The notes: generated by a model not told the origin, from the sequence alone. A DNA stretch of 64,000 nt from a virus (IMGVR_UViG_3300021399_000006:78128-142127); one strand, 5' to 3'. Positions 30,175 to 32,516 are shown, counted from the first letter of the stretch. Numbers and translations: made by a program.

Positions 30175-30720
30175 TCATTCTTTCTTCTCCTTATATTTAT
30201 CAATATCTTTAATTATTTGCTCTATAGATACAGGATAACAATTATGAGCGTCCATTGCTACATTATAAATACTATATTGTCCAAACTCAAATTTATTAGA
30301 ACTATGAGTATGTCCAGATAAATTCCAGAAGAAACGCTCTTCCTCAAAATTACCTACAAGAGTAGGATAATGAGAAAGATAAAAAATTTTCTTTTTATTG
30401 TATTTATAAATTGAAGCAAAACCAAGATATGTCATACCGTATTCTGTTTGATATTTATTAAGTTTATTATTTGTATCATGGTTCCCCCAAATAATAAATT
30501 TTTCACCATTTAATACTTTATAAACACGATTCCATTCTTTTTCGTTTCCGCTCATACAAAGGTCACCAAGAATGTATACAGTATCTTCTGGAGTTACAAC
30601 ACTGTTCCATCTTTTTAAGATTTCTGTATCATGTTCTTCAATTGAAGAAAAACCGCGCGGACGCCAGATAAAATCCTTATCGTGTCCGATATGTGGGTCT
30701 GCGGTAAAATAAACAGCCAT
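30175..30720 (-). CDS. Calcineurin-like metallophosphoesterase (candidate 2',3'-cyclic/3'-phosphoesterase of an RNA-repair cassette)
   Basis: Motifs DPHIGHD, GDLCMSGNE, GNHD, GHTH. Confidence 0.65.
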   Translation of the reverse strand: MAVYFTADPHIGHDKDFIWRPRGFSSIEEHDTEILKRWNSVVTPEDTVYILGDLCMSGNEKEWNRVYKVLNGEKFIIWGNHDTNNKLNKYQTEYGMTYLGFASIYKYNKKKIFYLSHYPTLVGNFEEERFFWNLSGHTHSSNKFEFGQYSIYNVAMDAHNCYPVSIEQIIKDIDKYKEKKE

Positions 30721-30721
30721 A

Positions 30722-31222
30722 TTATCTCCTTTCTAAAAGATTTATTGTTTTTCCATCAAAAGTATATATATAATCAAAAGGTTCATTATAAGTTGGCGGT
30801 TCCATCCTAAGATACATATTATGTATTTCGTGCGGAGGCACAAAGGTGCGGCCGCCCTTTCTTGTTTCATTACGTTCAAGACACGTTTCCAAAGGAAGGT
30901 TCATATATACACCTATTACGGTTACTTTTGTTCTATCTATATGAAGATTATGAAAAAGAGCATTACGACTTTTTCTATTTAAATGTGTTGCATCTGCAAT
31001 AACATTATAACCTTCTTTTAAATTTTCATTAATTTGTTTAATAAATTCTTTATAAACTTGTTTTTCTTTTGCAAAATAATTATCTGTATCAGAAAGAAAG
31101 GCGAATCTTATCCCATCTCTTGAAATATGGATAGTATTATCATTCATAATAGCATATCTTGCATAAGTAGATTTTCCTGAACCAGGAATACCCATCATAA
31201 TATATAATTTATTTTTTTCCAT
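30722..31222 (-). CDS. P-loop polynucleotide 5'-kinase-like protein
   Basis: MMGIPGSGKSTYA Walker A. The size and position between the phosphoesterase and the RNA ligase suggest a Pnk kinase-domain analogue. Confidence 0.55.
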   Translation of the reverse strand: MEKNKLYIMMGIPGSGKSTYARYAIMNDNTIHISRDGIRFAFLSDTDNYFAKEKQVYKEFIKQINENLKEGYNVIADATHLNRKSRNALFHNLHIDRTKVTVIGVYMNLPLETCLERNETRKGGRTFVPPHEIHNMYLRMEPPTYNEPFDYIYTFDGKTINLLERR

Positions 31223-31268
31223 TTTTTCTCCAAAACGAGGGAGAGATAATCTCTCCCTCTATTATTTA

Positions 31269-32516
31269 TTATCCGTGATAGGCAAGTAGAAATTCATTAG
31301 AAACAGCTTTGAAAGATTTACTACCATCTTCAGAGCGAAAAACAATACCTTCTCGCATATCACCATCAATTTGAGATTTATCTGTTGCGTATTCGAGTAA
31401 CTCTTCTACTGTATCAGGAAGAATGAACTTACTATCAACAACAGGGACGCAAGGAATCCGATAGTAATCTTCAAGTAATTCTCTCATTTTAAGAGTATTA
31501 AATCTTCCCTTATCAGAAGTAATAAGGTTAAAAGCCATAAAATCATGTCCTTTAAGATGATAATCTCTTTTTTGTACTCCTGCGCCATAGGTTTCACCCT
31601 GGATAGTAATCCATTCTGCGGCTGGGAATAATGTCAGCATCTCAGTTAGAACATGCTCAATATGGTATTTCTCTGCCATCTCGGTGTAGATATTAGTCTC
31701 ATAAAAACAGGCTTTATCGGGCTTGTCAAAACAAACATTTCGAGAACAAACATAAAACTCATTTTTACGAGGCCACTTCCCGCGTTTAATAGTAAAGGTA
31801 GTAGAAGAGCCATCAATCTTTTCTGTTGCAATCCAAGGGTTTTTATCTTCAAGAATCCAAGGTATATTTTGAACTCTTTCTTCATCAGTTTTCTTTACCC
31901 AAGCAGGCCAATCAGTTTTATCTCTCTTTTTACCGAAGAAAATGAAAAGAAATTTCTTTCCCCATTCCCGCTTCATAAGCCAGCGGAAAGGTTGCTTTGC
32001 AAAAAGTTTGCCGTTACGTTGAGCCATTTTTTTATATTTATCTACGGAAGGGGCTTTGCGGACATTATCTTCTGCTACATAATAAGTTACACCAAGCTGT
32101 TTAGTAAGGAAACGAGATTCATCATTAATATTATGAATAGTTTTTTGGTCATTTTCTACGATAAAAGGAGTATTATCTTCATTCATCGTATGACCAATAG
32201 TCCATCCGAAATTTGCGGCGGACATAAGAAGTCCCTGAGAAATAGAACGGCACATCTTTTGAGTCTTTACGCGGTATTTCTTTTTCGCAAGAAATTCCAT
32301 ATTAATAAAAGGTTCTACTTCAGGAAGTTTAGAGTCAATTTCAAAGTAAATTGCGGGGTCTCCCGCTTTAAATTCTCCCTTACCGACAACGATAGTCCAT
32401 CCGCCCACATGAGCAAGTTCTACTCTATCATATCCTTCAATAGGAGTAATATCATTAACAATTACAACGTAAGCAAGTTCTCTTTCATTAGTTTTTGGAT
32501 TAAGCAAAATAATCAT
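31269..32516 (-). CDS. rnlA: RNA ligase, T4 Rnl1 (RnlA)-like
   Basis: Motif I ATEKIDGSS (T4 Rnl1 has TKEDGSL). Motif IV-like REGIVFRSEDGSKSFKAVS (T4 has EGYVAVMKDGSHFKIKS). Confidence 0.7.
   Translation of the reverse strand: MIILLNPKTNERELAYVVIVNDITPIEGYDRVELAHVGGWTIVVGKGEFKAGDPAIYFEIDSKLPEVEPFINMEFLAKKKYRVKTQKMCRSISQGLLMSAANFGWTIGHTMNEDNTPFIVENDQKTIHNINDESRFLTKQLGVTYYVAEDNVRKAPSVDKYKKMAQRNGKLFAKQPFRWLMKREWGKKFLFIFFGKKRDKTDWPAWVKKTDEERVQNIPWILEDKNPWIATEKIDGSSTTFTIKRGKWPRKNEFYVCSRNVCFDKPDKACFYETNIYTEMAEKYHIEHVLTEMLTLFPAAEWITIQGETYGAGVQKRDYHLKGHDFMAFNLITSDKGRFNTLKMRELLEDYYRIPCVPVVDSKFILPDTVEELLEYATDKSQIDGDMREGIVFRSEDGSKSFKAVSNEFLLAYHG

Follow-up and report, generated by a model that had tools for sequence, protein, structure and literature searches.

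What does a phage mend when it carries, side by side, genes for a phosphoesterase, a kinase and an RNA ligase? The question is raised by a locus at positions 30175-32516 of the viral stretch IMGVR_UViG_3300021399_000006:78128-142127, a segment of a large uncultivated phage genome with a GC content of ~30%; by the window we mean this whole stretch of 64,000 nucleotides. A first interpretation made from the DNA alone (the sequence-only reading) had taken the locus for a tRNA repair cassette of the T4 kind, comprising a metallophosphoesterase (MPP), a P-loop kinase and an Rnl1-like ligase and answering a tRNA-cleaving defence of the host. Unambiguous family matches uphold the three enzyme classes (an MPP, a P-loop kinase of the polynucleotide type and an ATP-dependent RNA ligase) and the overall heal-and-seal logic is plausible, while the clades of the ligase and the MPP turned out to be different ones. 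We read the locus as a phage end-healing and end-sealing module of three separate proteins, with a probability of roughly 55%, and regard a variation on the toolkit with which phages are known to repair cut RNA, assembled from parts other than those of T4, as the likeliest identity of the cassette.

The three genes are adjacent and co-oriented on the minus strand, at exactly the coordinates first assigned to them, and the same three open reading frames (ORFs) were called by an independent gene caller on a 100% identical public contig, whose sample label (SHIW14, SAMN02144231) would point to the rumen of sheep. The gene for an Rnl5-family RNA ligase (31269-32516, 415 aa) is followed downstream by that for a stand-alone polynucleotide-kinase-type P-loop kinase (30722-31222, 166 aa) and that for a small binuclear MPP of the aq_1665 type (30175-30720, 181 aa). 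Only 1 nt separates the kinase stop codon from the ATG of the MPP, whose ribosome-binding site, AGGAG, lies inside the last kinase codons; these two genes are translationally coupled. The 46-nt spacer between ligase and kinase holds a perfect 10-bp hairpin, GAGGGAGAGAT-TAT-ATCTCTCCCTC (31237-31259, minus strand), and after it GTTTTGGAG, which contains the ribosome-binding site of the kinase. The hairpin is kept in the related loci L001, L005, L009 and L039, with one compensatory change from G-C to A-T, and in L007 a different terminator-like hairpin occupies this position; the window hairpin probably acts as a leaky terminator or stabilises the transcript. A megablast of the locus against isolated phages gave zero matches, and thus no annotated close relative.

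The kinase, with its P-loop GIPGSGKST at residues 11-19, matches AAA_33 (5e-19) and phrog_505, 'polynucleotide kinase' (1.6e-24). Searched as a single sequence against the PDB, it matches Capnocytophaga Pnkp1 (1.5e-10), the kinase domain of Clostridium thermocellum Pnkp (CthPnkp; 5e-6) and T4 Pnk (1e-3), and a profile of its family matches CthPnkp (2.5e-17), PSTK (2.6e-15), Pnkp1 (2.1e-13), T4 Pnk (5.2e-13) and mammalian PNKP (4e-9). The same profile search was used to ask whether the protein could be an adenylate or deoxynucleoside monophosphate kinase, and no such enzyme was matched at or below 0.01. Conservation is complete or reaches at least 95% in the P-loop (G11 to K17-T19), in S34-R35-D36-x-x-R39 and D77-A78-T79 and at R121, P13, G14, G16 and N118 are also conserved, and the conserved segments align with their equivalents in Pnkp1 and CthPnkp. 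We take the signature residues to correspond to K15, D35, R38 and R126 of T4 Pnk. On these matches and alignments, the kinase belongs to the polynucleotide/tRNA-kinase clade of CthPnkp, PSTK, Pnkp1 and T4 Pnk, and is predicted to act on 5'-OH ends. Its nearest relatives in isolated phages (~33% identity) are annotated polynucleotide kinases of Tsamsa-like Bacillus phages, where they form the N-terminal half of kinase-HD fusions adjoining an Rnl1-type ligase. A scan of a genome collection with the kinase profile found only distant cellular relatives (25-38% identity), none of them paired with an MPP homologue or Rnl5, and yielded no prophage clue to the host. A candidate identity as 5-hydroxymethyldeoxyuridine (5-hmdU) DNA kinase was rejected, the match spanning only 33 residues and lying below the cutoff.

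The MPP is catalytically complete. It contains D8-x-H10, GDLCMSGNE (52-60), GNHD (79-82), H117 and GHTH (136-139), and the five motifs (DxH, GD, GNH[DE], H, GHxH) are invariant in alignment A1, a feature that holds at the level of the superfamily only. The motifs quoted in the sequence-only reading are indeed all present in the MPP and the ligase, the single discrepancy being a trivial shift of one residue in the pattern given for ligase motif IV/V. The MPP matches Metallophos (2e-7) and phrog_547, 'phosphoesterase' (2.4e-45), and its structure model is confident, with a predicted local distance difference test (pLDDT) value of 93. The structural neighbours of the model are LpxH (11.9), YfcE (10.8), the MPE nuclease (10.6), MJ0936 (10.1), lambda phosphatase (10.0), Mre11/SbcD (~9-10) and the phosphatase domain of CthPnkp (8.1). 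The comparison with C. thermocellum Pnkp that had been drawn for this protein thus holds for the superfamily and fails for the clade: the MPP falls outside the lambda-phosphatase-like clade and is assigned to the aq_1665 (COG4186-like) clade, so that it resembles CthPnkp only at superfamily level. We found no characterised member of the aq_1665 clade.

What connects this MPP to polynucleotide ends is its association with the kinase. We retrieved 90 loci with the kinase as anchor, 88 of which could be evaluated for the MPP, and dereplicated loci at 70% identity. The MPP gene lies 3' of the kinase in 86/88 of them, at a distance of at most 300 nt in 69 of the 86, and within 2 kb downstream of the kinase in 76/80 dereplicated kinase clusters. 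Furthermore, an exhaustive search of representatives with the MPP uncovered five proteins of 341-348 aa, each representing a 50%-identity cluster (P0375, P0379, P0399, P0420 and P0440), in which an AAA_33 kinase and an MPP are fused; searches with the single proteins gave standalone orthologues of the same clade only. From N- to C-terminus the fusions run kinase then MPP, as do the window genes, with which the two halves share 35-45% (kinase) and 41-44% (MPP) identity. The 3'-phosphoesterase fused to the kinase varies between systems, being a HAD domain in T4 Pnkp and Pnkp1, an MPP in CthPnkp and an HD domain in the Bacillus phages. Because such fusions exist, and because every characterised polynucleotide kinase of the same clade is fused to a 3'-phosphoesterase, we read kinase and MPP as a split, Pnkp-like end-healing enzyme. 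It is from its coupling and fusion to the kinase that we infer the role of the MPP as 2',3'-cyclic/3'-phosphoesterase partner.

This association also decides how much weight to give to another view of the pair, in which the MPP would be a phosphodiesterase of signalling nucleotides, a protein phosphatase or a nuclease, for example a factor acting against cyclic oligonucleotides and the cyclic-oligonucleotide-based antiphage signalling system (anti-CBASS), and the kinase would act on a tRNA-linked or small-molecule substrate in the manner of PSTK or KTI12. The MPP family is common in phages without RNA ligases, including T5-like ones, where its neighbours are annotated as Ser/Thr phosphatases; the small MPPs YfcE and MJ0936 are generic phosphodiesterases; PSTK nearly equals CthPnkp as a match to the kinase profile; and there is the weak, sub-threshold match to the 5-hmdU DNA kinase family. 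The last of these covers only the 33 residues mentioned, however, and PSTK's C-terminal tRNA-binding domain is missing from the kinase. Above all, the near-obligate coupling of MPP and kinase and their repeated fusion mirror each bifunctional end-healing enzyme so far known (T4 Pnkp, CthPnkp and the kinase-HD fusions) and have no parallel in the degradation of signalling nucleotides. We therefore hold this view to be very improbable.

The ligase is the component for which our result departs most clearly from the sequence-only reading, which had called it Rnl1-like. Its motifs EKIDGSS (232-238) and EGIVFRSEDGSKSFKAVS (389-406) lie within an RNA_ligase domain (PF09414; 227-405, 1e-20) that is preceded by an N-terminal OB domain (PF21189, PHA02142 OB-fold; residues 15-98, 7.5e-19), and the protein ends 12 aa past K403 of motif V, without a C-terminal domain. 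Rnl5 proteins likewise end shortly after motif V (PMC1807946). The Pfam scan gave no match to PF09511 (Rnl1), the PHROG match is to phrog_968 (5e-65) and the best NCBIfam model is TIGR02306 (RNA_lig_DRB0094; 5.7e-33), whose equivalog cutoff the ligase does not reach (114.2 vs 151.15 bits). Among solved structures, entries of the Naegleria gruberi RNA ligase (NgrRnl) are its only relatives by sequence (phmmer 2.2e-33), ligase residues 12-117 aligning to NgrRnl 5-116. With roles taken from the NgrRnl literature (PMC7261155) and transferred through this alignment, R12, D61, T210, R214, K233, D235, E308, F329, E389 and K403 of the ligase are equivalent to R4, D53, T145, R149, K170, D172, E227, F248, E312 and K326 of NgrRnl. 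The lysine to be adenylylated, K233 of motif I, is thus kept together with all other active-site residues, and each of the 10 positions shows conservation of at least 95% across 74 distinct orthologues of the ligase. Between the two domains lies a conserved and very basic insertion of ~60-80 extra residues (~118-201). The structure model is confident only in the nucleotidyltransferase domain, and residues 143-210, with pLDDT <50, were not interpreted; compared by Foldseek, the model matches NgrRnl at ~1e-20, T4 Rnl2 at 2e-8, T4 Rnl1 at 2.2e-4 and the ligase domain of CthPnkp at 2e-3. Taken together, sequence and fold assign the protein to Rnl5 (DraRnl of Deinococcus radiodurans and NgrRnl), the nick-sealing type of RNA ligase, with its active site intact; it represents a divergent subfamily marked by the inter-domain insertion, and its membership in Rnl5 rests on features other than the TIGR02306 score. 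An identity as Rnl1 is refuted by domain order, Pfam content and fold comparison.

This assignment matters for the mechanism, since the characterised Rnl5 enzymes are selective. DraRnl and NgrRnl are manganese-dependent and seal 3'-OH/5'-PO4 nicks in duplexes only if the 3'-OH strand is RNA (PMC1807946, PMC5397189, PMC4408790), and DraRnl fails to circularise single-stranded RNA, the reaction favoured by Rnl1 (PMC1807946). Repair of the anticodon loop in the style of T4, by an Rnl1-like ligase and in response to a host nuclease of the PrrC/RloC type, would fit the general enzyme chemistry; the phage has tRNA genes and other RNA-related genes, and ligase-kinase pairs of phages are conventionally read as tRNA repair (PMC9703825, PMC7824862). 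Against it stand the N-terminal OB domain of the ligase in place of the C-terminal tRNA-specificity domain, the missing PF09511, a fold match to Rnl1 that is ~16 orders of magnitude weaker than that to Rnl5, and the inactivity of DraRnl on single-stranded RNA ends; furthermore, no host or anticodon nuclease was found, either by megablast against isolated phages or in the genome-collection scan with the kinase profile. Because the characterised Rnl5 enzymes need a duplex nick, anticodon-loop repair as in T4 is not the likeliest mechanism, and we consider it highly unlikely here. By analogy with those enzymes, breaks in the helices of structured RNA, or nicks in RNA-DNA hybrids, would fit better.

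Does the ligase then belong with the other two proteins? Loci retrieved with the ligase as anchor number 80 (57-93% identity), 70 of them with enough downstream sequence, and in 54 of these 70 viral loci both kinase and MPP lie 3' of the ligase; after dereplication, the pair follows the ligase in 42/52 ligase clusters. All 54 complete loci show the order ligase-kinase-MPP on one strand, even where kinase and MPP are only 35-45% identical to those of the window, and other neighbours (holin, a 149-aa ORF, a major-vault-protein (MVP)-like gene) come and go. The arrangement is conserved and no chance adjacency. Ligase loci that lack the pair have no substitute healing enzyme adjoining the ligase, its neighbours there being SPFH/Band-7, YqeY and ATP-grasp genes.

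A fourth component emerged from the same comparison. In 41/54 loci an ORF of ~100 aa with two CxxC pairs and a GHLKKLYC motif, hereafter the Zn-ribbon ORF, lies between ligase and kinase, and it is found upstream of the kinase in 50/73 dereplicated clusters, fusions included; examples directly upstream of a kinase or fusion are L011:2194-2502 (plus strand), L087:1-381, L088:4392-4763 and L092:34-309. It has no Pfam match and no credible match anywhere in the window, whose spacer holds the hairpin 31237-31259 in its place. Kinase and MPP, joined in most relatives by the Zn-ribbon protein, are the robust unit, and the ligase is a common but optional neighbour of it.

Two related loci show further genes in the same interval. 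In L079 (7758-10794) four ORFs inserted between the Rnl5 gene and the kinase look, when read by eye, like genes of NAD salvage and synthesis, resembling isochorismatase/nicotinamidase, nicotinate phosphoribosyltransferase, nicotinamide/nicotinic acid mononucleotide (NMN/NaMN) adenylyltransferase and NAD synthetase. In L034 an extra ORF of 250 aa (7831-8592) between the ligase and kinase-MPP genes looks, on the same kind of inspection, as if it had lambda-phosphatase-type MPP motifs, in which case that cassette would hold two different MPP types.

If the three proteins do act together, the kinase, through P-loop K17, the general-base-type D36, R39 and the lid residue R121, would phosphorylate 5'-OH polynucleotide ends; the MPP, as a binuclear enzyme of the manganese type, would open or remove 2',3'-cyclic or 3'-phosphates to leave a 3'-OH; and the ligase would then adenylylate itself on K233, hand the AMP on to the 5'-phosphate and close the break. 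If DraRnl and NgrRnl are a guide, sealing would take place only while the ends are held as a duplex nick with RNA as the 3'-OH strand. The likeliest substrates would be structured RNAs, such as helices of tRNA or rRNA or RNA lying on a complementary strand, and the cuts would be those made by metal-independent ribonucleases that belong to host defence or toxin systems, which would give the module a role in counter-defence. This picture is in line with the other RNA-centred genes of the window (a DUF2828/VWA protein, an RlaP-like nucleotidyltransferase and four tRNAs) and with the observation that independent phage lineages, namely Tsamsa-like phages and KLEB27-3, build the same logic with swapped parts.

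Several observations weigh against a three-protein RNA repair module, and the first group of them concerns its membership. The MPP family is very widespread, with 1,871 isolated-phage records and 14,108 representatives at E <=1e-3, and on its own the MPP is no sign of RNA repair; in addition, P0433 (502 aa) combines a relative of the MPP with a C-terminal TatD-type nuclease (TatD_DNase, 3.7e-46), which by its domain matches indicates that the clade has also been recruited into nuclease contexts. The window version, having no Zn-ribbon gene, may be a reduced form. Seen from the kinase, Rnl5 lies upstream in only 27/71 kinase-anchored loci, with none near the kinase in 44/71, and occurs anywhere in 21/52 kinase loci with at least 6.5 kb on each side; the figure of 39/73 for the pooled dereplicated set is inflated by ligase-anchored sampling. 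On the 114-kb contig of L088, the Zn-ribbon ORF and a kinase-MPP fusion are followed by genes for GyrB, GyrA and NAD-dependent ligase, and the 5 kb upstream of the fusion contain no Rnl5. Conversely, isolated Pseudomonas phages with Rnl5 have no kinase or MPP homologue within 4 kb on either side of it, and in phiM12 the metallophosphoesterase annotated ~2 kb upstream of Rnl5 is unrelated. The ligase is a frequent but facultative partner of kinase and MPP.

It could be that the functional unit stops at the kinase-MPP pair, joined in relatives by the Zn-ribbon protein, that Rnl5 is a frequent syntenic neighbour with a separate role, and that the three-gene cassette is in part an artefact, arising because a single phage clade has kept its gene order. 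Such a separation would agree with the conserved hairpin or terminator-like element that parts ligase from kinase, with relatives in which NAD-salvage genes, an SPFH gene or an ORF resembling a homing endonuclease stand between the two, and with the much slower evolution of the ligase, which across the same loci retains 57-93% identity as against 35-45% for kinase and MPP. What speaks for the ligase as a true partner is that order and strand are identical in every three-gene locus, that the pair persists in most dereplicated ligase clusters while other neighbours vary, and that the ends which kinase and phosphoesterase produce would naturally be used by a ligase in need of a 5'-phosphate and a 3'-OH; moreover, the combination of a ligase with healing enzymes recurs with other families in other phages. 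On balance, we regard a separate role of the ligase as rather improbable. Should the enzymes prove not to work together, what is left is an ordinary syntenic block within a replication module.

The second group of objections concerns the substrate. Rnl5 enzymes seal duplex nicks and not single-stranded RNA ends, the phenotype of DraRnl points to DNA repair, and the cassette sits in an arm of DNA replication and repair genes (polymerase, helicases, primase, NAD-dependent DNA ligase and gyrase). An alternative is therefore that the locus serves the repair of DNA or RNA-DNA hybrids during replication: kinase and MPP would clean up the 5'-OH and 3'-phosphate ends of phage DNA or of sites primed by RNA or patched with ribonucleotides, after which Rnl5 would seal nicks with a 3'-OH strand ending in ribonucleotides. 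The PNKP-type kinases of T4 and mammals, which are among the matches of the kinase profile, act on DNA too, and the structural neighbours of the MPP include the DNA nucleases MPE and Mre11. The cassette lies between the gyrase and NAD-ligase genes and the rest of the replication arm, and the L088 fusion adjoins the same gyrase and ligase genes without an adjacent Rnl5. The parallel would be with the role proposed for DraRnl in the reassembly of the Deinococcus genome and with the preference of LigD for ribonucleotide ends: a DraRnl knockout is radiation-sensitive and delayed in genome reassembly, and Rnl5 accepts DNA in both the 5'-phosphate and the template strand (PMC5397189). On the other side, the closest characterised and isolated-phage relatives of the kinase are all RNA-repair enzymes or stand beside RNA ligases, and the phage already has a full NAD-dependent DNA ligase. 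Since RNA-repair genes are found inside the replication arm of the Bacillus Tsamsa-like phages as well (PMC9703825), the position of the cassette cannot tell apart the two kinds of substrate, RNA and DNA. We consider DNA or hybrid repair unlikely, and retain cut RNA as the favoured substrate of the module.

When would the cassette be expressed? In the late genes of the window TAG is a sense codon. The endolysin gene (29319 to 27847, minus strand), apparently truncated, is one frame of ~490 codons with 8 in-frame TAGs that ends in TAA TAA, and reading TAG as sense yields five large plus-strand ORFs between 36285 and 45839 with 5-22 TAGs each and restores several minus-strand genes, including NrdD; besides the endolysin gene, TAG serves as a sense codon on the minus strand at 10307-12139, 19311-20297 and 213-2168. 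One of these regions, 19311-20297, has the densest TAG usage of the window by a wide margin, being a stop-free run of 328 codons with 21 TAGs (~6% of codons). No TAG is present in the genes for polymerase, helicase, primase, NAD-dependent ligase, gyrase and the MVP-like protein, nor in any of the three cassette genes, which end in TAA, TAA and TGA. The absence of TAG means that the cassette ORF calls stand despite the recoding. In recoded phages, genes readable in the standard code have been proposed to be expressed before the code switch. The cassette is consistent with this scheme and would be expressed before the switch to the TAG-recoded late genes. A scan for promoters was uninformative (32 sites observed vs 34.6 expected), and no suppressor tRNA with a CUA anticodon was found within the window. 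On a practical matter, ORF calling with the standard code misses or fragments late genes in a TAG-recoded phage such as this one.

A more far-reaching possibility, which we regard as distinctly improbable, is that Zn-ribbon protein, kinase and aq_1665-type MPP make up an uncharacterised class of bifunctional end-healing enzyme, the fourth phosphoesterase solution after HAD, lambda-type MPP and HD, and that its critical client could be the tRNA pool of the phage, including a suppressor tRNA for the late genes. If true, this would tie RNA repair to the upkeep of an alternative genetic code.

A strong terminator-like hairpin with a 15-bp stem followed by a T-run (32989-33024, minus strand) comes after the upstream MVP-like gene and probably marks the upstream edge of the cassette transcription unit. 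Directly upstream of the ligase and overlapping it, two small overlapping minus-strand ORFs of 94 aa (32657-32941) and 56 aa (32500-32670), together spanning 32500-32941, appear to be co-transcribed with it; their membership in the functional module is uncertain, the 94-aa ORF having zero Pfam or PHROG matches and being present in 19/80 ligase-anchored relatives, the 56-aa ORF in 7/80. The same uncertainty applies to a hydrophobic ORF of 42 aa (30050-30178, minus strand), also present in the independent gene calls, whose start codon shares bases with the stop codon of the MPP (ATGA). A 149-aa ORF (29626-30075, minus strand) that lies directly downstream of the MPP and has no Pfam or PHROG match is weakly similar (~40% over ~50 aa) to an ORF after the kinase-MPP fusion in L087 and L091, and on this similarity it may travel with the pair.

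The wider setting is as follows. The minus-strand replication arm (0.2-27.6 kb) encodes NrdD, DNA polymerase, a Dda-like helicase, primase, DnaB, NAD-dependent DNA ligase, GyrA and GyrB, and is followed on the same strand by endolysin and holin (27.8-29.6 kb), the cassette (30.2-32.5 kb) and the MVP-like gene (33032-35533, 833 aa), whose product matches MVP_shoulder (1e-21), Vault_3 and Band_7/SPFH and has no PHROG match. SPFH/Band-7 genes also adjoin the Rnl5 gene in L065, L071 and L078. Structural and tail genes occupy the plus strand at 36-56 kb, and the RNA-related cluster lies on the minus strand at 60243-63175, with the DUF2828/VWA protein, the Pol-beta/RlaP-like nucleotidyltransferase (61975-62793) and the four tRNAs. 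The first of these, a protein of 502 aa with DUF2828, DUF7788 and VWA domains, matches phrog_850, 'RNA-binding protein' (3e-127); its domain build is Ro60-like, no Ro60 structure was matched by sequence, and a Ro60-like identity is kept only as a candidate. One tRNA (62925-62998, minus strand; Rfam 39.3 bits), missed in the scan of the whole window, has an anticodon stem CCCCC/GGGGG around an 8-nt loop, UUGCAUAC, and is given a 4-base anticodon, 'gcat', by ARAGORN. Beside the tRNA cluster, a 139-aa ORF (63182-63601, minus strand) has a sub-threshold Hint/homing-endonuclease-associated match (4e-4) and may be the remnant of an intein or homing element. Pfam or PHROG scans of ~40 of the larger window ORFs, and of only some of the small ones, matched no methyltransferase family.

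We believe that the locus is useful chiefly for what it suggests about two enzyme families. Rnl5 ligases have a wide distribution that takes in bacteria, phages, archaea and eukaryotes (PMC5397189), and their physiology has been called uncharted, the only known phenotype being that of DraRnl, whose knockout is sensitive to radiation and slow to reassemble its genome (PMC5397189, PMC1807946). That a large clade of uncultivated phages places Rnl5 directly upstream of a Pnk-type kinase and a phosphoesterase offers a testable physiological context, with the prediction that the natural Rnl5 substrates in these phages start as breaks that end in a 5'-OH and a 2',3'-cyclic phosphate, the products of metal-independent ribonucleases. 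For the very common aq_1665 clade, the locus nominates the healing of polynucleotide 3' ends as a function.

Compared with known systems, the cassette resembles T4 Pnkp and Rnl1 in consisting of a phage-encoded 5'-kinase, a 3'-end phosphoesterase and an ATP-dependent RNA ligase, and its kinase has the fold and signature of T4 Pnk (P-loop Lys, Asp general base, Arg). In T4, by contrast, the phosphatase is a HAD domain (DxDxT) fused to the kinase and not a separate aq_1665-type MPP, and the ligase, Rnl1, bears a tRNA-specificity domain at its C-terminus and joins ends that lie in single-stranded loops, whereas Rnl5 has an OB domain and its characterised members seal duplex nicks. Nor are the T4 repair genes adjacent as those of the cassette are. 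With CthPnkp the cassette shares the combination of kinase, binuclear MPP and ligase, and CthPnkp, in which the MPP performs 3'-end healing (PMC2190708, PMC3675462), is the best solved match of the kinase profile. CthPnkp, however, is one three-domain polypeptide whose ligase needs Hen1 and is of a different clade (Foldseek 2e-3 vs ~1e-20 for NgrRnl), and no Hen1 was found among the cassette neighbours when the larger window ORFs were scanned with Pfam and PHROGs. The Pnkp1-Rnl-Hen1 system of Capnocytophaga likewise has healing and sealing on separate, co-encoded polypeptides, and its Pnkp1 kinase domain is the best single-sequence PDB match of our kinase; it differs in that Pnkp1 is T4-Pnkp-like with a HAD phosphatase, Rnl is the equivalent of the Pnkp ligase domain and Hen1 is required (PMC4411300). 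DraRnl and NgrRnl have the same architecture as the phage ligase, with an OB domain at the N-terminus and, behind it, a nucleotidyltransferase domain that stops soon after motif V, and all ATP- and metal-contacting residues are kept, NgrRnl being the best match in both sequence and fold; unlike them, the phage enzyme carries its extra basic residues between the domains and scores below the TIGR02306 cutoff, and the operon partner of DraRnl is a gene for a DEDDh-like exonuclease instead of kinase and phosphoesterase (PMC5397189). Among phages, the modules of Tsamsa-like Bacillus phages also place a kinase next to an RNA ligase inside the replication arm, but with an HD phosphoesterase fused to the kinase and a ligase of the Rnl1 type (PF09511), and with a function that is annotated only, as T4-like tRNA repair (PMC9703825). 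In KLEB27-3 an MPP homologue (38% identity) adjoins an RlaP RNA-repair nucleotidyltransferase. The general concept is already known, since a survey of jumbo phages in 2021 described polynucleotide kinases and phosphoesterases as the general companions of ATP-dependent RNA ligases in phages, the phosphatase being calcineurin-like or HD in a small number of phages (PMC7824862); to this set the present locus adds a version in which an Rnl5 ligase stands beside a split kinase and aq_1665-type MPP.

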